NCBI RefSeq assembly: GCF_048403405.1
Contig: NZ_CP183129.1
From: Escherichia coli
Lineage (GTDB): Bacteria; Pseudomonadota; Gammaproteobacteria; Enterobacterales; Enterobacteriaceae
Direction: 5' to 3' (one strand)
DNA: 64,000 bases
How positions within the stretch are numbered: the stretch's first letter is position 1; every line of letters starts with the position of its first letter. Shown piece after piece: positions 2,018 to 13,777 of this stretch. The notes below the pieces were generated by a model. It searched no databases. It saw only the letters and a list, made by a program, of their open reading frames with translations, and was not told the origin of the DNA. The position numbers and the translations under genes were made by a program.

Positions 2018-3127
2018 TCACTCTGTTTCCGCTATCCATTCCGGGATTTTTGCCTCAAGCTCAAGCTGCGTGGTAAAGCCGCTGTTATCAATAGTGTGCT
2101 CGGCTTTTGCAATGATCCAGTCCTGATTATCAATCTCGCTTTTAAATCCTGTTACCGTACCATGCATTTCGGGGTAGAGTTCTGCACGTCCACGCGCCAG
2201 CGTGATGGAGAATGATGCGGCTCCGCGTTGTAGTTGCTGCCACTTTGCCGCCGCTGCGCGTCTTGCTGCCTGTTCGTTCTGATAGGTCTTGCGTAACACA
2301 AACACATTGCCTTCCGCGCCTTCCATATAATCACCTTCACGGCTGCTGCTTTTCTCCTTTTGGGGTTTTGGTGGTTTGCGGCGTTTCACGCTGACTTTTT
2401 TCTTTTCCCCGTAATTAAGATCAAGCCAGTAGGCGCGTACCCCCGTATACGCCTCGCGGTCAGCAATACGGAACTGATGGCGATCGCCGCTGCTGCGTGT
2501 AATGGCGAACGAGGGCAACGGCTGGCCCTGTGCGTTCACGCCACCACCTGGCATGATGAATAACAGATTGCCGCTTTTTACCGTGGTGATTGCGCCCAGC
2601 ATTTCCGCCATGCGCGTAAGGAAGGACATGTCGCTTTCTTCGGTCTGGTCGGCGTGGTCGATTTCGATATCCATCAGCATTTCGCTGATTTGTGGTTTCA
2701 GACCATACCGATGAGCGATGGCGGATACCACACGCTCAACGGTCACATCATGCCAGGACACCTCACGTTTAACGTTAAATTCATCCCGAAAATCTGCGCT
2801 TCTGGCTGAAACAGTCAGCCTGTCCGGCGGTCCTTCGTGAGCGATTTCATCAACAATGTAAGTGCCTTTTTCTGTCAGCGGTTCTCCTTTCCAGCCAATG
2901 AGAACCGTCAGGCGCGCGCCCCGTGGCGGTAGCTGCAACTGACCATCCGCATCATCCAGCGTGATGGTGAGCTGGTCCGCCTCAAATCCCCGGTTGTCGG
3001 TCAGTGACAGGCTCATCAGGCGCTCTGCCACGCCTGACAGCGTTTTACCCTCCGCGAGAATATCAAAATCCGGCATTTTCACGGGGTCTGTGCCCTGACT
3101 GAGCAATTGCATGGTGGTGTCGGTCAT
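2018..3127 (-). CDS. D: Tail protein D (late control gene D)
   Basis: ORF track frame 2018..3259; start trimmed to ATG at 3127 (MTDTTMQLLSQGTDPVKMPDFDILAEG...) preceded by a GGGAGGGAA ribosome-binding site; P2 gpD-like length and sequence. Confidence 0.85.
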   Translation of the reverse strand: MTDTTMQLLSQGTDPVKMPDFDILAEGKTLSGVAERLMSLSLTDNRGFEADQLTITLDDADGQLQLPPRGARLTVLIGWKGEPLTEKGTYIVDEIAHEGPPDRLTVSARSADFRDEFNVKREVSWHDVTVERVVSAIAHRYGLKPQISEMLMDIEIDHADQTEESDMSFLTRMAEMLGAITTVKSGNLLFIMPGGGVNAQGQPLPSFAITRSSGDRHQFRIADREAYTGVRAYWLDLNYGEKKKVSVKRRKPPKPQKEKSSSREGDYMEGAEGNVFVLRKTYQNEQAARRAAAAKWQQLQRGAASFSITLARGRAELYPEMHGTVTGFKSEIDNQDWIIAKAEHTIDNSGFTTQLELEAKIPEWIAETE

Positions 3128-3284
3128 CTGTTCCCTCCCTGTGCGGCATGGTCGCATGTGCGTGCGGAGGGGGTTACTGCTTTTTGTTGTCGCCGGGTCG
3201 GGAGAACGGCGCAGGGGTGAGATTACGCGCGTGGTGGGTGATGATTGTTGCCGAATCATTTAACGGATACAAGGGGCTGAAGCT

Positions 3285-4469
3285 ATGAGTGAAACTCGTT
3301 TTCATGGTGCCCGTGTTACGGAAAATACCGACCTGGTAACAGCGATTAACGATGTTGATTCCAGCGTTATCGGTATCGTGGCAACGGCGGATGATGCGGA
3401 CGCGAAGCTGTTCCCGCTGAATAAGCCCACACTGCTGACCCGCGTCAATGACGTGCTGGGAAAATGCGGGACAACGGGGACGCTTTATCGTGCGCTTAAG
3501 GCCATCGCAGACCAGGTGAGCACAAAGGTGATCGTCGTTCGCGTGGCTGAACACAAAGAAGAAGACGGAAAGACGCAGGATCAACTGGTTATCGGTGGTT
3601 CTGAGGATGACGGCAGCTATACGGGGATGTATGCGCTGCTTGTTGCAGAGCAGGATGAAAGCATCGGATACCGTCCGCGTATTCTGGCCGCGCCGGAGCT
3701 GGACACGGAGGCTGTAACAAAATCCCTGTGCGTGATTGCAGGTAAACTGCGCGCGTTTGTGTATGCCTCATGTCACGGCTGTAACACGATGGCTGAGGCG
3801 ATTACCTACCGCCAGAAATTCAACGAACGTGAGGTGATGCTCTTATGGCCGGACTTCATCGCCTACAACCCGAAAAGTGGCAAAAACGAAACGTTCCCCG
3901 CGCCTGCCTATGCGTGCGGCCTTCGTGCGTACATTGACCATGAGCAGGGCTGGCACAAATCGCTGTCCAACGTTCCGGTTAAAAATGTGCTGGGAATGTC
4001 CAGGCATGTGTTCTGGTCGTTGCAGGCCGAAGACAGCGATGCCAACAGCCTCAACAACAAAGAAATCACGACCATTATTCGTCGCAACGGGTTCCGCTTC
4101 TGGGGCAACCGCACACCGGAAACGAACGCCTACATCTTTGAGGTGTATACCCGAACCGCACAGGTGCTGGCTGATTCAATTGCGGAAGCGCAGTTTGAAA
4201 CCATCGACAGTCCACTGACACCTGCGAACGTGAAGGATGTTATCAGCGCCATCAGGGCAAAACTGGATTCGCTGGTTACTGCCGGGAAACTGATTGGTGT
4301 GGAGTGCTGGTATGACGTGGTGGATAACGGCACCACGAATTTACGTCAGGGACGTGTGCGTATTCGCTACAAATATACGCCTGTTCCCCCGCTGGAAGAC
4401 ATGGAGCTTTACCAGACGTTTACTGATGAATTCTTTGGTCCCGCATTTGCGGTGCTGGGAGGTGCCTGA
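3285..4469 (+). CDS. FI: Tail sheath protein FI
   Basis: 394 aa; GIVATADDADAKLFPLNKP...DGFRFWGNRT...YTPVPPLE motifs as in P2 gpFI. Confidence 0.9.
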   Translation: MSETRFHGARVTENTDLVTAINDVDSSVIGIVATADDADAKLFPLNKPTLLTRVNDVLGKCGTTGTLYRALKAIADQVSTKVIVVRVAEHKEEDGKTQDQLVIGGSEDDGSYTGMYALLVAEQDESIGYRPRILAAPELDTEAVTKSLCVIAGKLRAFVYASCHGCNTMAEAITYRQKFNEREVMLLWPDFIAYNPKSGKNETFPAPAYACGLRAYIDHEQGWHKSLSNVPVKNVLGMSRHVFWSLQAEDSDANSLNNKEITTIIRRNGFRFWGNRTPETNAYIFEVYTRTAQVLADSIAEAQFETIDSPLTPANVKDVISAIRAKLDSLVTAGKLIGVECWYDVVDNGTTNLRQGRVRIRYKYTPVPPLEDMELYQTFTDEFFGPAFAVLGGA

Positions 4470-4981
4470 TGGCTGTACCAAAACATCTTCGCTTTTTTAC
4501 GTTGTTTGTGGATGGTGAAAACGAAGTGGGTAAAGTGACATCCGTCACGCCGCCCAAACTGACGCGCAAAACCGACAGCTATCGTGGTGGTGGCATGATG
4601 GGGGCGGTAAGTATTGATCTCGGTCTGGACGACTCCGCGCTTGATGCGAGTTTTGTCATGGGGGGAGCTGTTCGTGCGCTGTTCCTTAAATATGGCGGCA
4701 CGATTGACGGCACGCTGCTGCGTTTTGCGGGTGAATACTACACCGATGCAGAAAGCGATCTGTATGAAATCGAGATGCGCGGGCGTGTGACGGAAATTGA
4801 TATGGGGGAAGCCAAACAGGGCGAAGCCACATCACACACTTACGCTGTCAAAAACACCTACTACAAGCTGAGCGTTAACGATCGCCCGCTGTGGGAAATC
4901 GACCTGTTGAACCACATCTACCGGAAGGACGGCAAGGACATTGTGCCTGACCGTATCCGTTCCGCGCTTGGGCTTGGCTGA
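4469..4981 (+). CDS. FII: Tail tube protein FII
   Basis: 170 aa, directly follows FI; P2 gpFII-like. Confidence 0.9.
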   Translation: MAVPKHLRFFTLFVDGENEVGKVTSVTPPKLTRKTDSYRGGGMMGAVSIDLGLDDSALDASFVMGGAVRALFLKYGGTIDGTLLRFAGEYYTDAESDLYEIEMRGRVTEIDMGEAKQGEATSHTYAVKNTYYKLSVNDRPLWEIDLLNHIYRKDGKDIVPDRIRSALGLG

Positions 4982-5036: not shown

Positions 5037-5411
5037 ATGAAAGACATCGATACTGAAACCCGGAATAACACCGTGGCGGATGATGTGACGGCAGGTGAGG
5101 ATATGGCTGTCGAACGTGGCGTAAAACTGACCCGACCAATTGAGCGTGGTGGCGAAAAAATCACGTATGTGGAGATCACCGGGGCTATTGAGCAGGCTGG
5201 ATCCCTGCGTGGTCTGTCGCTGTCTGATGTGCTGAATCTGAAAGCGGATACCATGTTTACGCTGTTGCCTCGCGTGACCTCGCCACGACTGGATGAAGTG
5301 ATGATTAAAAAAATGTCGTCACGCGATTTTATTCAGTTGTGCGCTGTGGCTGTAAATTTTATGAGCGAGCCAGACTCTGGCGCGAAGAGCGTGCAGGAGA
5401 CGGCAGCGTAA
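5037..5411 (+). CDS. E: Tail assembly chaperone E (zero-frame product)
   Basis: ORF between tube and tape-measure genes, the position of P2 gene E. Confidence 0.75.
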   Translation: MKDIDTETRNNTVADDVTAGEDMAVERGVKLTRPIERGGEKITYVEITGAIEQAGSLRGLSLSDVLNLKADTMFTLLPRVTSPRLDEVMIKKMSSRDFIQLCAVAVNFMSEPDSGAKSVQETAA

Positions 5412-5575
5412 TCACCCTGGTGTGCTTTGAGCACATCGAAGATCTGGTGGCGGATATTGCCGCCATTTTTAACTGGTCGCCCGCCGAAATCTTCATGATG
5501 ACGCCCGGCGAAGTGGTTAGCTGGCGCGAGCGGGCGGCACTTCGCAGCGGGAATGCAGATAATGAAGACTCTTGA
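5037..5575 (+). CDS. E+E' fusion by programmed -1 ribosomal frameshift
   Basis: The -1 frame is open from 5309 to 5575 and overlaps the E frame; an A7 run (5307-5313) in ATT-AAA-AAA-ATG is a plausible slippery site; 3' end overlaps the T start, as in P2 E/E' and lambda G/GT. Confidence 0.55.
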
Positions 5576-8369
5576 TATCCGGGTCGCTTTCAGCGCCGTT
5601 GACAGGCTGACCCGGCCTGCCGAAAACGCCCGCCGCCTGATGGGGCAGTTTGGTGACTCCATCCAGCGAACGCAGGGGGCGATCAAAAATCTCGAGCGTC
5701 AGGCGCGTTCATTTGAGCGCGCCCGTGACGCTGTCAGTAAAGCGGATGCTGGCATCGTGAAAGCACGACGCCAGCTTAACGCCCTTAATCAGTTACAACG
5801 CACGGGTACAGTGCTCAGCGAAAAACAACAAAAGCTGATGCAGCAGTTAAGCACCCGGCTTGAACGCCTGAATGAATCGCGCACACGGGAAATTCAGAAA
5901 ATGCGGGAGCTTGGCGGAGAGCTGAAACGCCACGGCATTTCCCTGACAGGCAGCGATAACACCATCCAGCAGGCCATCAGACGCACCGAACAGTACAACA
6001 ACCAGCTTGAACGCGAACGGCAGGCGCTTGCGCGTGTAACGCGGGCGCGTGAGCGGTATTCGCGCGCGCAGGAAACAGCGGGAAAACTGAAAACAGGTGG
6101 TGCGCTGGCAATTGGTGCGGCAGCGGCGGGCGGCTATGCTGCCGGGCGTTTTTTGCAGCCTGCGATCGGGTTCGGCAAAGAGATGTCCCGCGTTCAGGCA
6201 CTGACGCGAATCGACCAGAACAGCCCGCAGTTTAAGGCGCTGCGTGAGCAGGCGTTAAAACTTGGCTCTGAAACGCAGTTCACCGCAGGCGATGCCGCCA
6301 GTGGACAGGCATTTCTTGCAATGGCTGGCTTCACTCCGCAGGCCATTCAGGCTGCGCTTCCCGGCGTGCTGAGCATGGCAACGGCTGGCGGTATGGATCT
6401 CGGCGAGACGGCAGATATTGGCTCAAATATCCTGACGCAGTTCGGCCTTTCTGCTGACCAGATGGACCGGGTCGGTGACACACTCACCGCAGCGTTTACC
6501 CGTACCAACACTGACCTTCGCGCACTGGGCGAAACCATGAAATATGCAGGTCCGGTGGCGGGTAAGCTGGGAATATCGCTGGAGCAGGCCGCAGCGATGG
6601 CTGGCGTGCTGGCGAATATGGGCATCAGAGGGAGTGATGCCGGGACGGCAATGCGTGCCAGCCTGGCTCGTCTGGCATCACCGCCAAAGGCGGCGGCAGA
6701 AGCTCTGAAAGAGCTGGGCGTGTCCGTCTCGGATGCCGGGGGCAAAATGCGCCCGATGGAGGATGTGCTGGCCGACCTTTATAAAGCCACCCGTAAATAC
6801 GGGGAAGTTGACCGGGTATCGTTCTTTAAGGACATTGCCGGAGAAGAGGCTTTCACATCGTTTATGGCGCTCGTTGATGCAGCGGGTGACGGTTCCTTAC
6901 CCAAACTGAGAAAAGAACTTGAAGGCGCGCGCGGTGAGGCTGAACGCACAGCAAAGGTTATGGCCAACAACCTTGACGGCGATCTGAAATCACTCGGCAG
7001 TGCATGGGAAGGGTTGCGCATCCGCATTGCAGATCTGATTGACGGTCCGCTGCGTTCTGTCACGCAGTGGCTCACGCGGGTGGTCTCAAAAGTGACGGCA
7101 CTGGCGCAGGCCCATCCGGCACTGACGCGCCAGTTACTGATAGCGGGAGGTGCACTGCTGGCGACAACAGCAACGGTTGGTTCGTTGTCTCTGGTTATTG
7201 GGGTGCTTCACGGGAAGCTGGCTACGTTACGTCTCGGTTTTTCTCTCCTGACCGGATCAATGAATGCTGTCAGGGGCCTGCCAGCACTATGGGGAATGGT
7301 GACGGGTTCCGTTTCTTTACTGGGAGGCGCTATCGGGGCGCTGATCAGTCCGGTTGGTCTTATCGTGGCTGCGCTTGCCGGAGCTGCCGTTCTTATCTGG
7401 AAATACTGGGATCCCATCAGGGCATTTTTTGCCGGGGTGTTCAGCGGGATTATGGAAAGGCTGACCCCGTTGCGCGAAACCTTTGAACGGTTTGGTCCTG
7501 TTTTTGACGCAATCGGAAGCGGGATCAGCCAGGTGTTTAACTGGTTTAAATCGCTGCTGTCACCGATGGAGTCCAGCAAGGAAACGCTGGATAAATGTAC
7601 CAGTGCTGGCGAGATATTCGGTAACGTTCTTGGCGGTGCGTTACAGCTTGTTCTGACACCTGCAAAAATGCTACTGGATACGCTGGCGTGGATACTTGAA
7701 AAACTTGGCGTCCTTCCGGATGAAGCGGAAAAGGCGCGCAAGAAAATCGAAGACGCACAGCGTGCGGCCATTCTTCAGGACAAGGTTGCCTTGCTTCAGG
7801 GGGACCTTGCGAAAATCAATCCGCCGAAGCCTGTGGAAAATGGCAATGGCACCGGAGGTGATAAACCCAAAGACAACAAACCGCTCACAGACAGCAATAC
7901 CGGGACGCTACGCAGACTCAGCAAAATTGCTGATAACACAGGTAAGCTGGTTGATGAGACGAAAAAACGCATTGGCCCTGGCGATATTGTCTTTAAGAAC
8001 CTGCCCCGCGCACTTGCTGTTCGTGGGGAGTGGCAGGAGCGGAAGATTGCGCAGGTCAGTAAGCCTGCCCCCGCAATTAATATCACACCCGTAGTCCCGG
8101 CTCCGCTGCCTCCGGCGCTGGTCCCTGTTGTTGCGGCCAGCTCCCGCCCGGTGGCGGAGGCCATACGATCGCCAGTGGCATCAGTTCCTGCAGCTTCCCG
8201 TAATCGGGAGCCTGCTGTCTCCAGATTTGGCGGTGAAATTCATGTTCATCTGCATAACGTTGTTACGCAGAATCCCCGCGAACTGGCGAAACTGGTCGGT
8301 GAAATGGTCAGGGCAGAGATGGAACGGCGCGCCCGTGCCGGACGTGGCAGTTTTTACGATAAAGATTGA
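5553..8369 (+). CDS. T: Tail tape measure protein T
   Basis: 938 aa; coiled-coil-rich N-terminal part, Gly/Ala-rich hydrophobic middle; position after E/E'. Alternative start ATG at 5562. Confidence 0.85.
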   Translation: MQIMKTLDIRVAFSAVDRLTRPAENARRLMGQFGDSIQRTQGAIKNLERQARSFERARDAVSKADAGIVKARRQLNALNQLQRTGTVLSEKQQKLMQQLSTRLERLNESRTREIQKMRELGGELKRHGISLTGSDNTIQQAIRRTEQYNNQLERERQALARVTRARERYSRAQETAGKLKTGGALAIGAAAAGGYAAGRFLQPAIGFGKEMSRVQALTRIDQNSPQFKALREQALKLGSETQFTAGDAASGQAFLAMAGFTPQAIQAALPGVLSMATAGGMDLGETADIGSNILTQFGLSADQMDRVGDTLTAAFTRTNTDLRALGETMKYAGPVAGKLGISLEQAAAMAGVLANMGIRGSDAGTAMRASLARLASPPKAAAEALKELGVSVSDAGGKMRPMEDVLADLYKATRKYGEVDRVSFFKDIAGEEAFTSFMALVDAAGDGSLPKLRKELEGARGEAERTAKVMANNLDGDLKSLGSAWEGLRIRIADLIDGPLRSVTQWLTRVVSKVTALAQAHPALTRQLLIAGGALLATTATVGSLSLVIGVLHGKLATLRLGFSLLTGSMNAVRGLPALWGMVTGSVSLLGGAIGALISPVGLIVAALAGAAVLIWKYWDPIRAFFAGVFSGIMERLTPLRETFERFGPVFDAIGSGISQVFNWFKSLLSPMESSKETLDKCTSAGEIFGNVLGGALQLVLTPAKMLLDTLAWILEKLGVLPDEAEKARKKIEDAQRAAILQDKVALLQGDLAKINPPKPVENGNGTGGDKPKDNKPLTDSNTGTLRRLSKIADNTGKLVDETKKRIGPGDIVFKNLPRALAVRGEWQERKIAQVSKPAPAINITPVVPAPLPPALVPVVAASSRPVAEAIRSPVASVPAASRNREPAVSRFGGEIHVHLHNVVTQNPRELAKLVGEMVRAEMERRARAGRGSFYDKD

Positions 8370-8375
8370 GGAGTC

Positions 8376-8870
8376 ATGGTCATGATGATGATCTACGGCA
8401 TGTTTGTTTTTGAGCTGCGCACACTGCCGCATCAGCAGTTACAGCAAAACAAAAGCTGGCGGCATGTGAAAAATGAACGCGTTAACCGTTCAGCAAGCTG
8501 GCAGTATATAGGTGCAGGTGATGATCGCATTGTGCTTTCCGGCGTGCTTTATCCTGAAATTACAGGTGGCGAAGTGTCGCTTTCGTTGCTGACCACGCAG
8601 GCATATACAGGACGCCCCTGGCCTCTGATTGATGGTGTCGGGCAGATTTACGGCATGTATGTGCTGACTGAAACGAATACGACCCGTTCCGAGTTTGATC
8701 GCTACGGTAAGGCGAAAAAGATAGAATTTTCACTGACCCTTGAACGCTGTGATGAGGATTTGCGGGAGCGCCTGCAATCCTCATCATTCAGCGATATGCT
8801 GTCCGGCTTCAAAGATAAGGTGACATCATCTCTTAACAGCGCGGCCAGTTCAGTTAAAGGGCTGTTCTGA
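8376..8870 (+). CDS. U: Tail protein U
   Basis: 164 aa; MMMIYGMFVFELRT... resembles P2 gpU. Confidence 0.85.
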   Translation: MVMMMIYGMFVFELRTLPHQQLQQNKSWRHVKNERVNRSASWQYIGAGDDRIVLSGVLYPEITGGEVSLSLLTTQAYTGRPWPLIDGVGQIYGMYVLTETNTTRSEFDRYGKAKKIEFSLTLERCDEDLRERLQSSSFSDMLSGFKDKVTSSLNSAASSVKGLF

Positions 8871-8883
8871 TTTAACACAAAAA

Positions 8884-8912
8884 CCGCTAATGGTCAGATT
8901 AGCGGTTATTTT
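8884..8912. terminator. Bidirectional intrinsic terminator between convergent U and invertase genes
   Basis: Hairpin CCGCTAA-tggtcaga-TTAGCGG flanked by T-rich tracts on both strands. Confidence 0.5.
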
Positions 8913-9493
8913 GTTTCCTGACTCTTCTCTATTGTTCCGATTGATTCTCCTGCGGGGTGGTAACGATAAATCGTCGATATACCAATGCCGTAAATTATTG
9001 CCAGTTGTTTTCTGTCGTGCCCGTTTTTGATCAGCCTTGCTATTTGCTCATGCTGTTCTTTTGTCAGCTTCGGTCGACGTCCGCCTGTGCGCCCCCGTGC
9101 GCGTGCTGCCGCCAGTCCGGCCAGTGTACGTTCAACAATTAATTCACGTTCCATTTCAGCCAGGGCACCCATCACGTGGAAGAAAAAACGCCCCATTGGA
9201 GAAGATGTATCTATGCTGTCGGTCAGACTGCGAAAATTAATTCCTCGCTCCCGTAGTTCCCCGACGAGAGAAATCAGATGTTTCATGCTTCGCCCGAGGC
9301 GATCCAGTTTCCAGACAACCAGCGTGTCACCTTTTTGAAGGCGCTTTAAAGCGCGTTTTAATCCCGGTCGGTCTGTCTTTGTCCCGCTTAATTTATCTTC
9401 AAATATTTGTTCACATCCTGCACAAACAAGAGCGTTTCGTTGCAGGTCTGTATTCTGGTCATTTGTTGATACCCTTACATAGCCAATCAGCAC
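8906..9493 (-). CDS. Site-specific DNA invertase, Gin/Pin/Cin/Hin serine recombinase family
   Basis: (V)LIGYVRVSTNDQNTDLQRNALVCAGCEQIFEDKLSGTKTDRPGLKRALKRL... is near-identical in pattern to Mu Gin / e14 Pin; start trimmed to GTG at 9493. Confidence 0.9.
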   Translation of the reverse strand: MLIGYVRVSTNDQNTDLQRNALVCAGCEQIFEDKLSGTKTDRPGLKRALKRLQKGDTLVVWKLDRLGRSMKHLISLVGELRERGINFRSLTDSIDTSSPMGRFFFHVMGALAEMERELIVERTLAGLAAARARGRTGGRRPKLTKEQHEQIARLIKNGHDRKQLAIIYGIGISTIYRYHPAGESIGTIEKSQETK

Positions 9494-9547
9494 GCTGAAT
9501 CTCCCGTCCAAAAGCGCAAATCATGCCATGCAGGCCGGAAACGGCCA

Positions 9548-9580
9548 TTATCTAAAACCTCGGTTTACAGGAAACGGTAA
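9548..9580. other. gix-like inversion crossover site (right)
   Basis: TTATCTAAAACC-TC-GGTTTACAGGAA matches the gix/cix-type 26-bp site; an inverted copy lies at 12614-12646. Confidence 0.8.
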
Positions 9581-10581
9581 ACAAGGCTGGTAACGCCGTC
9601 CAAAAGACAGGCGATATCTTGTCCGGTGGGCTTACTTTTGAAAACGACTCAATCCTTGCCTGGATTCGGAATACTGACTGGGCAAAGATTGGTTTTAAAA
9701 ATGATGCCGACAGCGATACTGATTCATACATGTGGTTTGAAACAGGCGACAACGGCAATGAATATTTCAAATGGAGAAGCAAACAAAGCACCACAACAAA
9801 AGACCTGATGAATCTTAAATGGGATGCTTTGTCTGTTCTTGTTAAAGCCCTTTTCAGCAGTGAAGTAAAAATATCGACAGTCAATGCACTGAGGATATTT
9901 AATTCATCTTTTGGTGCTATTTTTCGCCGTTCTGAAGAATGCCTGCATATCATCCCGACACGAGAGAATGAGGGAGAAAATGGTGATATAGGGCCACTAC
10001 GCCCCTTTACGCTTAATCTCAGAACTGGTCGGATAAGCATGGGGCATGGTCTTGATGTTACAGGGGATATATTTGCAAACCGTTTTGCAATTAACAGTAG
10101 TACCGGCATGTGGATTCATATGCGTGACCAGAATGTTATTTTGGGACGCAATGCGGTATCCACCGATGGTGCACAGGCATTACTTCGTCAGGACCATGCT
10201 GATCGCAAATTTATGATTGGTGGGCTGGGAAATAAGCAATTTGGCATCTACATGATTAATAACTCAAGGACAGCTAATGGCACCGATGGTCAGGCGTACA
10301 TGGATAATAACGGGAACTGGCTTTGCGGTTCGCAAGTTATTCCCGGCAACTATGGCAATTTTGATTCCAGATATGTGAAAGATGTTCGACTTGGTTCACA
10401 GCAATATTATGGAGTGAACAACTGGCAAACATGGAATTTCCAGTGCCCGTCAGGTCATGTATTGTCTGGTATTAATGTTCAGGATACAGGGTCCAACTCT
10501 GCCGATAATATAGCGGGCGTTTATTACAGACCCGTTCAAAAGTATATAAATGGCACCTGGTATAATATAGCGAGCGTTTAA
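9559..10581 (+). CDS. Alternative tail-fiber C-terminal variable cassette (promoterless, silent in this orientation)
   Basis: Frame opens inside the crossover site and encodes LGLQETVN, the same peptide encoded at the other site within H; C-terminus [12 protein letters not shown] parallels the H C-terminus [12 protein letters not shown]. Confidence 0.75.
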
Positions 10582-10582
10582 T

Positions 10583-11110
10583 ATGATGCACTTAAAGAAC
10601 ATAAAAGCGGGTAATGCTAAAACACTGGAACAGTATGAGTTAACAAAGAAGCACGGAGTCATCTGGCTTTACTCTGAGGACGAAAAAAACTGGTATGAGG
10701 AAGTGAAAAACTTTCAGCCAGACACCATAAAGATTGTTTACGATGCAAATAATATTATTGTCGCCATCACTAAAGATGCCTCCACGCTTAACCCTGAAGG
10801 TTTTAGCGTCGTTGAGGTTCCAGATATTACAGCCAACCGCCGCGCTGATGATTCAGGAAAGTGGATGTTTAAGGATGGAGCTGTAGTTAAACGGATTTAT
10901 ACGGCAGACGAACAGCAACAACAGGCCGAATCACAAAAGGCCGCATTGCTTTCCGAAGCTGAATCAGTCATCCAGCCGCTGGAACGCGCTGTCAGGCTGA
11001 ATATGGCAACAGACGAGGAACGCACACGACTGGAAGCATGGGAACGCTACAGTGTTCTGGTCAGCCGTGTGGATACGGCAAATCCTGAATGGCCACAAAA
11101 GCCTGAATAA
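10583..11110 (+). CDS. Alternative tail fiber assembly protein (silent orientation)
   Basis: 175 aa; N-terminus [23 protein letters not shown] nearly identical to the active copy at 11139..11672, C-terminal part divergent. Confidence 0.8.
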
Positions 11111-11115
11111 AAATT

Positions 11116-11137
11116 AAGGCCCGCTATCGGGCCTTGT
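11116..11137. terminator. Bidirectional hairpin between the two convergent tail fiber assembly genes
   Basis: AAGGCCCG-ctat-CGGGCCTT perfect stem at the centre of the invertible segment. Confidence 0.5.
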
Positions 11138-11138
11138 C

Positions 11139-11672
11139 TCATTCAGGTTGTTCGGGAAATGTTACTGGCAGGCTGGAGGTGTCTGTAGATTCGACTTTCT
11201 GCGCATAGAGCATCCACTCGGTTAATTTTGGTTTATTCTCGTCGGAAATGATGCCCAGCCGTAGCTGTGAGTCCCATAGCTGGGTTTTATCCCTGACAAG
11301 TTGCAACAGGCTTTGCTTTTCATTTTCCGCCTGCTGCCTCTGCTCTTCCTCGGTATAAGTTCGCTTTACCACTACGCCATCTTTGAACATCCATTTACCC
11401 GAAATGTCAGCACGGCGATTTGCTGTAATATCAGGTAATTCAACGACGCTTGCGCCTTCCGGATTAATTGCTGAAACATCCTTTTCAATACAAATAATAA
11501 CGCCGTTATGGTCATAGACCATTTTTAAAGTGTCTGGCTGGAAATTCTTTTGTTCCTCATACCAGTTTTTTCCATCCTCTGAATAAAGCCATTTGATGTT
11601 AAATTGTTTCGTTAGCTGGTATTGCTCTTTTGTTTTAGGGTTGCCAGCAGTAATGTTTTTTAAGTGCATCAT
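11139..11672 (-). CDS. G: Tail fiber assembly protein (P2 G-like), active orientation
   Basis: 177 aa, immediately downstream of H. Confidence 0.85.
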
Positions 11673-11674
11673 CG

Positions 11675-13777
11675 TTAAATACTCCCCGCGTTATACCACG
11701 TCCCATTAATGCAATACTGAATTGGCCTTGCCTGAGTTGTATCAATTAATTCATCACGGTTTCCGTTAACTGAACCCGTAACGACATAACCTGACCTGTC
11801 AGACCAGCCGGGACCATTCCATGTCTGAACAGATGACAGACCGCCAAGGCGAATACCTGTAATAAACCTTGAGTTACATTCTGCCTGCGTGTATGCACCA
11901 ACATCTCCCGCTGAGGGTTTGCGGGTCGTGGTGTAAAACTCTGACCAGTCAGCTTCAAAGCCATAACCATCACGCGCTGAACGATAAAAAATGCCGCCGT
12001 TCCTGTAATTCACGCGGAACTGTACAGCAGGGCAACTCCCCGCATTCATATTGAAATGAAGAATTAACGTTGATGCGCCGGTGATTCTGGCGCAATAAAC
12101 TCCGCTGTTCCAGTTCCAGCCAACAGCTTTATCATTTCCGACAGTGCTTCCTGTTTGCCCTAAAGCAAATGCAGGTTGTTGATTTTTCGTGTTGTAGTCT
12201 CGTCGCCAGCCAGGAGCGTAAGCATCACCATGATTGATATAAGTGAATTGAGCGTTAGTAATTCCGCCACCGCTGGACGTGCTCGGCGTGGTAACGCGTA
12301 TGGTCATTGCGCCGCGAGTGCCAATAACTTCCACCACAGCACCTGCAAGACAAATATTTCCGCAACCTGTATCTGTAATGACCTTATTATTTGCATAAGC
12401 CCATGAGCCTTTGCACATCCAGTAAGGATGGTTAAATGCTCCCTGACTCTCCAGCCACGAAATAAATTGCGCGGTTGTCCAGACCTGACTATCGCCACCA
12501 ATATTCAGCCATGCGCTATATGCGCGGCAGGCACCAATATTTTTGGTGAAGGTATCTTTTCCTGGAATATCTGCGCCGTTCTGGTTTTTCTGTAATGCGC
12601 CAGAAGCCTGATTTACCGTTTCCTGTAAACCGAGGTATTCGATAACGGCAGCAACGGTCGATTTCGCAAGAATATCCCGCCCGACTTTTGTCAGGGTTGC
12701 CAGGCTGGCGACATCATTCCCCGTAAAATACGGAAACCTGTCTGCCGCAGTAGCAAGCCCGGCCAGCGCCGTCAGGGTGGCATCTTTCGGTTGCTTACCC
12801 GCAAGCGCTTTAGTCATGGTGGTCGCAAAATTCGGGTCGTTTCCCAGCGCCGCCGCTAACTCGTTCAACGTATTCAGTGCGTCAGGCGACGAGTCTACAA
12901 GTGCGGCAATCGCGGCCATCACATAAGCCGTGCTTGCGATCTGAGTATTATTAGTCCCTTTTGGCGCAGTTGGCGTTGTTGGCGTTCCGGTCAGTGCAGG
13001 ACTATTTAAGGGCGCTTTCTTGTTCGTTTCATCCATTACCGCCTTAACCGCTTTTGGCGTCGCAGCCAGCGTTTCAGATGTGCTGTTGGTGGCGCTACTG
13101 AGCTGAACTATCCCTTTTCGCGCAGTGGTAGCGTCCTGTGCGGTGTATTTGCCATTAGCCAGGTCATATGCCGCCTTAACAGCCTTTGGCGTTGCCGCAA
13201 GCGTTTCAGACGTGCTGTTAGTGGCGCTGCTAAGTTGAACAAAGCCTTTTGCGGTCAGCGAGGCGTCCGGGTGACGTCGTGAGTGTTCATGCTCTTTCAG
13301 TTTGTCATCCACGTAATCCACTGTGGCCATCACCATGGTGTTATCCACGGTAAGCGCCACGGTGGCAGTGCTGGATACGGTCAGAATGGTGCGAAATGTT
13401 TGTGCACGTCCTGACCCTTCGGCAACGGCTGGCTTGTAACTTTCGGCAGTATTGCCTACTGCGATTAAATCGCCGTGCTCATCAAACACACCAATTTCCC
13501 GGATCCAGAATCCGCCCGTTTCTGGAGGAATAACCAGCTCCGCAATAATGCGGTTCTGATGTGTTGCGTCCAGTATGACGCGATTAACAGTGTGTCGCCA
13601 CACCTCATGCACCAGACGGGTCTGCTTACTGTCTGGTGTGGGCAACGTGCCGCCACCGTCGCCCACGGCCATATGAGTCAGGCGGACAGGCTTACCATCT
13701 GGCGCGGCTGCCTGAGCTAATTTTTTTGCACCCGTATCGGTGATAACGGTTTTAAATTTTCGTGTTGTGGTACTCAT
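11675..13777 (-). CDS. H: Tail fiber protein H (constant N-terminal part 13777-12634, variable C-terminal part inside the invertible segment)
   Basis: 700 aa; conserved P2 H-like N-terminus, internal tandem repeat [22 protein letters not shown] x2; crossover site within the coding sequence. Confidence 0.9.
12614..12646. other. gix-like inversion crossover site (left), inside H
   Basis: TTACCGTTTCCTGTAAACCGAGGTATTCGATAA is the reverse complement of the 9548-9580 site, with 31 of 33 positions matching. Confidence 0.8.

Follow-up and report, generated by a model that had tools for sequence, protein, structure and literature searches.

The E and E+E' tail proteins of phage P2 and the G and GT proteins of phage lambda are the closest described counterparts of the gene pair analysed here. 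Lambda, a siphovirus, has a tail that is non-contractile, and its slippery sequence, G_GGA_AAG, is unlike the one proposed for this locus. The lambda chaperone gene lies before the tape measure gene, and a low-frequency −1 shift generates a C-terminally extended form, an arrangement that the present locus would share. The ratio of the two lambda forms matters for tail assembly (PMC5009743). In P2 the slip site has been described as T6G (PMC3931495), and the RefSeq record places the −1 frameshift immediately after GGT-TTT-TTG and names both products 'essential tail protein'. No amino-acid similarity is reported between the P2 and lambda pairs (PMC3931495), and lambda G/GT is taken here, by analogy, as a functional analogue only. 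The A_AAA_AAG and A_AAA_AAA sites of dnaX and of IS elements form a further point of comparison. They superficially resemble an A7 run within E of the present locus, but they have the X_XXY_YYZ phase and are accompanied by stimulators.

The window, a stretch of 64,000 nucleotides from the Escherichia coli contig NZ_CP183129.1, carries what its sequence identifies as the tail operon of a P88-like (Xuanwuvirus, Peduoviridae) E. coli prophage. The open reading frames and their Pfam matches give the order sheath, tube, E, E', T, U (Table 1). Many E. coli chromosomes match the 611 bases around the proposed slip site at 100% identity, and the locus is found in 1369 of 5426 complete E. coli genomes, about a quarter of them. 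It shares 98.7-99.7% identity with P88-like Xuanwuvirus phages, including P88_4B11 and several prophage-derived phages, and 83% with P88 itself, which has the gene order and the site of the window. The locus resembles the FETUD operon of P2: the pair lies between tube and tape measure, both frames are homologous to those of P2, the predicted shift falls near the end of E, and E' ends just inside T. The D gene is placed differently, on the opposite strand and upstream of FI in the window and after U in P2.

Table 1. Positions of the genes and proposed recoding features in the window
Feature	Position	Strand	Details
gpD-like gene	2018-3259	−	upstream of FI
Tail sheath gene, FI-like	3285..4469	+	Pfam Phage_sheath_1 and related domains; RefSeq annotation
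Tail tube gene, FII-like, directly upstream of E	4469..4981	+	Pfam PF04985 Phage_tube, 2.1e-45
E, tail assembly chaperone, 124 aa, standard-translation product	5037..5411	+	ORF; P2 E homologue
A7 run, Lys91-Lys92 and first base of Met93	5307..5313	+	codons ATT AAA AAA ATG, 5304-5315
A_AAT_TTT, proposed −1 slippery heptamer	5354..5360	+	P-site AAU Asn107, A-site UUU Phe108
E', predicted −1-frame segment after the slip, 71 aa	5360..5575	+	first codon TAT 5360-5362, stop TGA 5573-5575; PF06528
Dual-coding stretch, E C-terminal tail (16 aa) over the start of E'	5361..5411	+	variable sites by E-frame codon position 2/6/4
51-aa 'GpE family phage tail protein' ORF, GTG start	5420..5575	+	RefSeq and phage-record annotation
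T, tape measure gene	5562..8369	+	Pfam PF10145, 3.6e-58; RefSeq start equivalent = 5562
U-like tail gene	8376..8870	+	Pfam PF06995 Phage_P2_GpU, 5.5e-39

The ATG of E is preceded by a GGAG Shine-Dalgarno sequence. The protein matches the profile phrog_103 ('tail protein') at 1.4e-33 and Pfam PF10109 Phage_TAC_7 over residues 29-109 at 20.6 bits, under the cut-off of 25. Despite this sub-cut-off Pfam score, E is identified by sequence as a homologue of P2 E, because the phrog_103 match is joined by a BLASTP match to P2 E+E' (9e-29) that covers the E part. The NCBIfam collection held no family that matched E or either of the two fusions discussed below. In the −1 frame, the junction ATT|AAA forms a TAA at 5306-5308, so the frame opens at 5309; it closes at the TGA at 5573-5575. 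This frame matches Pfam PF06528 Phage_P2_GpE at 46.3 bits (cut-off 23; E = 2.9e-12) and is, judged by its sequence, genuinely coding. E' thus placed shares sequence with the 3' end of E, lacks its own ribosome binding site and stops inside the start of T. With T starting at 5562, as in RefSeq, the TGA sits 14 nt within T; the ORF list also offers an alternative ATG start for T at 5553.

The original prediction, a reading of the bare sequence, had described E, the codons ATT-AAA-AAA-ATG at 5304-5315 and a −1 frame open from 5309 to 5575, all of which were confirmed by direct reading. It took the overlap for the −1 frameshift conserved in tail chaperones, as in P2 E/E+E', a claim supported by synteny and by homology in both frames, and it placed the slip at 5300-5320, on the A7 run. 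This placement is not supported. The run is out of phase, and the E frame offers a single canonical X_XXY_YYZ heptamer, A_AAT_TTT at 5354-5360, which lies beyond that interval, 45 bases downstream of the run.

The heptamer coincides with the slip site of P2. The window codons GTA-AAT-TTT-ATG (V-N-F-M) stand in the same alignment column as P2 GGT-TTT-TTG (V-G-F-L), and the slipping Phe is the same residue in both. In the multiple alignment, MSSRDFIQLCAVAVNF of the window stands opposite LELPDLVALAGKVVGF of P2, while a fusion at the A-run puts unrelated sequence there. Alignment with P2-like E+E' proteins therefore bears out the family homology and sets the junction at about residue 108, not at the A-run. 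The heptamers themselves differ, T_TTT_TTG in P2 and A_AAT_TTT in the window. The T6G of P2 is missing in the window, which reads AAT-TTT-ATG; the change of TTG to ATG leaves the overlapping A_AAT_TTT. Since the ATG after Phe removes T6G, Phe-UUU would be the A-site codon in the window, whereas it is the P-site codon in P2. The site had been described as A-rich rather than T-rich, a description that does not fit: the slipping A-site codon is UUU for Phe, the slipping Phe codon of P2 as well, and only the P-site half is AAU.

A survey of 80 IMG/VR loci (roughly 44-100% identity), six named phages and the window, together 87 sources, found a canonical heptamer at this position in all 87. T_TTT_TTG occurs alone in 21 sources, T_TTT_TTC in 2 and T_TTT_TTA in another 2. 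A_AAT_TTT is found alone, as in the window, in 18 and overlapping T_TTT_TTG, the P88 type, in 19, while C_CCT_TTC accounts for 16 and C_CCT_TTT overlapping T_TTT_TTG for 9. Because 38 of the 87 sources have no T_TTT_TTG (the 18 with A_AAT_TTT only, the 16 with C_CCT_TTC and the two pairs with T_TTT_TTC and T_TTT_TTA), T6G is a feature of the P2 site and not of the surveyed family. The Klebsiella type, exemplified by ST16-OXA48phi5.4, has C_CCT_TTC instead of the A_AAT_TTT of the window. The P88 types read A-AAT-TTT-TTG, with two overlapping heptamers, and carry a −1-frame TGA after the A-run, in both respects unlike the window. In nine loci a −1-frame TGA directly adjoins the heptamer, so no productive slip can take place upstream of it there. 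Among close relatives, A_AAT_TTT is invariant across 25 distinct sequences; taken alone this is modest evidence, because the relatives with this heptamer have diverged little.

The pattern of constraint was compared on either side of the heptamer. In the 25 distinct close sequences, variable sites at E-frame codon positions 1, 2 and 3 number 3/1/11 between 5307 and 5353, a distribution that shows constraint on the E frame alone from the A-run up to the heptamer. The heptamer itself contains no variable site. From 5412 to 5552, past the E stop, the same count is 3/12/5, a pattern that reads as the wobble of the −1 frame. Pairwise comparisons give the same picture. The window and the L022 lineage, whose −1 frame is likewise open from the A-run, differ at 5 nucleotides in 5310-5354, and these leave all 15 E-frame amino acids unchanged but alter 5 of 14 in the −1 frame. 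Against P88, the same interval shows 2 of 15 changes in the E frame versus 10 of 14 plus a stop in the −1 frame; just after the heptamer the relation is reversed, with 8 of 16 changes in the E frame versus 3 of 15 in the −1 frame. The heptamer is exactly the point in the sequence where conservation leaves the E frame for the −1 frame.

Homology across the junction was compared for the two possible fusions. On the heptamer fusion the phrog_103 profile extends over residues 7-115 (116 bits), on the A-run fusion only over residues 7-92 (91 bits). The E' profile phrog_1756 scores the A-run fusion slightly higher (140.4 bits vs 131.3 bits for the heptamer fusion), an edge that we discount on the assumption that the profile was perhaps built from called −1-frame ORFs starting upstream of the junction, which would match by construction. 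The ORF list of the window contains a −1-frame ORF of this kind, started by a GTG at 5339. The BLASTP match of the heptamer fusion to P2 E+E', at 33% identity, runs through both parts end to end with the junctions aligned. An AlphaFold model of the heptamer fusion, built on a 20-sequence alignment, has a mean pLDDT of 82.8 and a pTM of 0.73, and it contains a helix at residues 95-111 that the E frame specifies in the stretch from the A-run to the junction. A Foldseek comparison of this model with the PDB gave a best E-value of 0.36 and no usable structural relative.

These results bear directly on the A-run. A −1 slip of tRNA-Lys on the A7 run would join E residues 1-92 to an 87-residue extension, giving a product that is likewise 179 aa long. 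In its favour, the window lineage has a −1 frame open from 5309, a single tRNA could move from AAA at 5310-5312 to AAA at 5309-5311, and the tetramer A_AAA, which corresponds to the phase of the run, shifts in an E. coli reporter at 0.125% with no stimulator and slightly over background, at 0.256%, with the IS3 pseudoknot (PMC4066793; the IS911 stimulators were not tested with it). Against this, the run lies in the E frame as AAA_AAA_A after a T; it is read T_AAA_AAA and not X_XXY_YYZ, and the P-site tRNA would have to re-pair with UAA. P88 and Chuche possess the same AAA-AAA-A, encoding a conserved Lys-Lys, with a −1-frame TGA four codons on, so a slip there would abort, and homologues from Klebsiella, Enterobacter, Yersinia and P2 have no A-run at the equivalent position. 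The −1 translation of 5310-5354 is the unconserved one in the comparisons with L022 and P88, and a slip at the run would remove the conserved E residues 93-108 together with the predicted helix. Nor are A7 runs enriched in the window, where 26 are observed vs 20.65 +/- 6.33 expected. With its AAA_AAA_A phase after T and the failed comparative tests, the run is unlike the dnaX and IS sites. As a programmed slip site it is rejected on phase, the TGA of its relatives, the E-frame-only constraint, homology and the helix; it is almost certainly not one, and tRNA slippage there is a very improbable source of E+E'. A minor extra product of slippage at the run may nevertheless be made in the window lineage, the −1 frame being open there.

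The same fusion would result if RNA polymerase slipped on the A7 run and added one A in some transcripts. Polymerases tend to slip on homopolymer runs, which may be why E. coli genes are depleted in AAAAAAA (PMC4066793), and A8 alleles of this very run exist at the DNA level in public assemblies. The P88-type stop, the unconstrained −1 frame before 5354 and the loss of conserved E residues count against this explanation as they do against tRNA slippage on the run, and efficient bacterial cases are documented for runs of 9. Transcriptional slippage is thus extremely unlikely to account for E+E'. A different proposal dispenses with the frameshift altogether: translation would start independently at the GTG at 5420 and yield a separate 51-aa E' protein. 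This very ORF is the one annotated in RefSeq and in several phage records, and its sequence is present on about 1000 contigs in public collections. However, no Shine-Dalgarno sequence lies at normal spacing before the GTG. The Klebsiella ST16 phage reads GTT GCG there, with no start codon, and the ORF is unannotated in this phage and in phiT5282H. The −1 frame is conserved from the heptamer onward, beginning about 60 nt ahead of the GTG, and E' of P2 is reported to have no ribosome binding site and to be expressed by frameshift (P2 record; PMC3931495). A free E' would also leave the conservation of the heptamer in 87/87 sources unexplained, and it is most improbable.

The annotation of the locus can be understood in this light. 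RefSeq and phage records list E as a 'tail protein' beside the separate 51-aa 'GpE family' ORF, and this ORF is probably an annotation stand-in for an unmodelled frameshift. In Klebsiella and Enterobacter phage records no E' is annotated, and no start codon is found at the position equivalent to 5420. Ribosomal slippage is annotated in none of the public records inspected for the locus and for P88, Chuche, phiT5282H and Klebsiella ST16-OXA48phi5.4.

The A7 run shows variation of another kind. Public contigs L089-L094 have A8 in place of A7, so that the two frames are fused at the DNA level; five of these contigs come from independent samples, and the tail operon is otherwise intact in them. 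Because such alleles exist in DNA, the A-run fusion protein turns up among the normally called ORFs of a 15-billion-protein collection, in several sequence backgrounds; the heptamer-junction fusion protein is absent from the same collection. A 178-aa variant, P0015 (…MIKNVV…), looks from the protein alone like the product of a shortened run. Among complete E. coli records with a window-type locus, the exact A7 is found in 552 of 600 and the exact A8 in 0 of 600. The run is a homopolymer indel hotspot that otherwise merely codes for Lys-Lys. By its sequence, an A8 allele would yield the fusion only and no free E. Since the product ratio is crucial in lambda (PMC5009743), the allele is, by analogy, probably an inactivating mutation. 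The A8 alleles are not evidence for programmed slippage at the run.

The reading that best fits these observations is that the prophage makes its E and E+E' chaperones by a P2-type −1 frameshift at A_AAT_TTT, to which we assign a probability of about 0.85. Most ribosomes would read E to its stop and produce the 124-aa chaperone. A minority would slip back one base on A_AAU_UUU, the tRNA-Asn and tRNA-Phe on AAU-UUU re-pairing with AAA-UUU, and would continue in the −1 frame from TAT to the TGA. The predicted E+E' protein, join(5037..5360,5360..5575), would comprise E residues 1-108 and 71 residues of E', with the junction …AVAVNF|YERARLW…. The original prediction had the fusion end within the first codons of T, as the present model does, and gave it about 92 + 88 residues; either junction gives 179 aa, and the split becomes 108 + 71 instead of 92 + 87. 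The two junctions predict different peptides, DFIQLCAVAVNFYER as the tryptic peptide across the heptamer junction, and NVVTR and FYSVVR for the A-run junction. Were only the P-site tRNA-Phe to slip, on U_UUU, the protein would be the same as with the heptamer slip; this is a variant of that slip, not a rival.

The slippage itself, its efficiency and the roles of both proteins we infer from the sequence and from the analogy with P2 E/E+E' and lambda G/GT. On that analogy, binding to the tape measure protein would fall to the E portion common to both products and recruitment of tube subunits to the E' portion, and the frequency of frameshifting would set the ratio of E to E+E'.

The shift competence of the heptamer has been documented in E. 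coli. The class H_HH.U_UU.Y is among the most efficient −1 motif classes in this organism (Sharma et al. 2014, PMC4066793). In the reporter used in that work, A_AAU_UUU shifted at 0.070% with no stimulator, at 0.355% with the IS911 stimulators and at 11.4% with the IS3 pseudoknot. The corresponding values are 0.118%, 0.247% and 0.765% for U_UUU_UUG, the site of P2, and 0.193%, 1.39% and 23.2% for C_CCU_UUC (PMC4066793). The background of the reporter is about 0.055%, close to the 0.070% of unstimulated A_AAU_UUU. A_AAU_UUU is thus a competent site that depends on a stimulator in the reporter system, and in reporters it is at least as responsive to stimulators as the U_UUU_UUG of P2.

Stimulators of the usual kinds were sought around the site. 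RNAalifold on 12 diverse sequences gave 0 pairs of conserved downstream structure, the downstream fold of the window is not significant (z = -1.33), and none of eight lineage-specific folds is significant either (z -0.21 to +0.85). A small hairpin, GCCAG-ACT-CTGGC (5369-5381), was seen by eye; as a stimulator it was dropped, being neither conserved in the P88 types nor part of the minimum-energy fold. Upstream of the site, P2 and the Yersinia phage share the Shine-Dalgarno-like sequence AAGGTG; this element is not conserved and is absent from the window. If the shift at A_AAU_UUU is efficient here, it would point to an unrecognised stimulator, such as an effect of the nascent peptide or some other non-canonical signal.

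A literature search for a P88 or Xuanwuvirus frameshift, or for AAATTTT as a tail-chaperone slip site, found nothing relevant. By sequence, the system is very probably known in kind, a homologue of P2 E/E+E' and an unannotated member of that group with a variant heptamer. The only differences from P2 are the identity of the heptamer, a longer E (124 aa in the window vs 91 aa in P2, with 48 nt of E after the site vs 18) and the inverted position of the D gene. A bolder and improbable extension of this comparison sees turnover of slip sites around one fixed Phe codon, which would occupy the P-site in T_TTT_TTG lineages and the A-site in A_AAT_TTT and C_CCT_TTC lineages. The window lineage, having no T6G, would then depend on A_AAU_UUU. 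Separately, and just as improbably, the A7 run with its natural A8 alleles could be a mutational on/off switch for tail production.

As for method, the most conspicuous homopolymer of an overlap is not necessarily where the slip occurs; the case is decided by phase, relatives and the distribution of changes over codon positions. For the family, a P2-like phage that has no T6G and keeps the overlapping heptamer is now documented, a small refinement and not a new mechanism. The corrected model of E+E' would give annotators the right product for a prophage family carried by about a quarter of complete E. coli genomes.

The probable slip site in the tail assembly chaperone gene E is built around one fixed Phe codon, which is surrounded by one or two overlapping canonical heptamers depending on the lineage. 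The arrangements found are A_AAT_TTT_TTG, C_CCT_TTT_TTG, C_CCT_TTC alone and A_AAT_TTT alone. During a slip the Phe codon can therefore occupy the P site in some lineages and the A site in others. P2 (L008 668-676) and the Yersinia phage (L007) share a further element, a Shine-Dalgarno-like AAGGTG upstream of T_TTT_TTG; counted from the first base of AAGGTG, the slip-site Phe codon (TTT) is 12 nt downstream. This element is absent from the window and from most other lineages.

Downstream of the heptamer, bases 5361-5411 code in two frames, and a comparison of the window with P88 separates them. Amino-acid changes affect 3 of 15 positions in the −1 frame, where the extension E' begins, and 8 of 16 in the C-terminal tail of E. 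The start of E' is thus the more conserved of the two, which suggests that the last 16 residues of E are under weak constraint.

The original prediction placed the slip at the A7 run (5307-5313). Public assemblies carry an allele with A8 at the equivalent position, on several sequence backgrounds (loci L089-L094; near 3270 in L089), in which codons 1-92 of E are joined to the −1 frame in the DNA itself. The resulting called ORF of 179 aa is identical to the product originally predicted from slippage on A7. Among 600 complete E. coli records, the exact A7 sequence occurs in 552 and the exact A8 sequence in none. A 178-aa variant in the protein collection (P0015) looks, to judge by its protein sequence only, like the product of a shortened run.

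Two further features are listed below. The gpD-like gene lies on the opposite strand ahead of the sheath gene, whereas D follows U in the P2 FETUD operon; RefSeq gives it 369 aa, with its end at 3127. Farther along, in the region 8906-13777, a serine recombinase gene adjoins a segment of ~3 kb that also holds an alternative tail-fibre C-terminus. Together they look like an invertible host-range switch, similar to the G-segment of Mu and the C-segment of P1.

Coordinates of probable slip sites and tail-region features (window positions unless a locus is named)
Feature	Position	Strand	Remarks
Heptamer site at fixed Phe codon	L003 1855-1864		P88
Heptamer site at fixed Phe codon	L006 1920-1929		
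Heptamer site at fixed Phe codon	L005 1986-1992		
gpD-like late-control/baseplate hub gene	2018-3259	minus	upstream of sheath gene
Serine recombinase	8906-9511	minus	Resolvase and HTH_7 domains
Inverted repeats	9544-9605 and 12588-12649		bound ~3 kb segment
Tail-fibre assembly gene, first of two oppositely oriented	10583-11110	plus	in ~3 kb segment
Tail-fibre assembly gene, second	11139-11672	minus	in ~3 kb segment

In RefSeq and phage records, bases 5420-5575 stand as a separate ORF that starts at GTG and encodes a 51-aa "GpE family phage tail protein"; no ribosomal slippage is annotated. In Klebsiella and Enterobacter relatives E' is wholly unannotated. The annotation of E' thus looks like a systematic gap in this prophage family.
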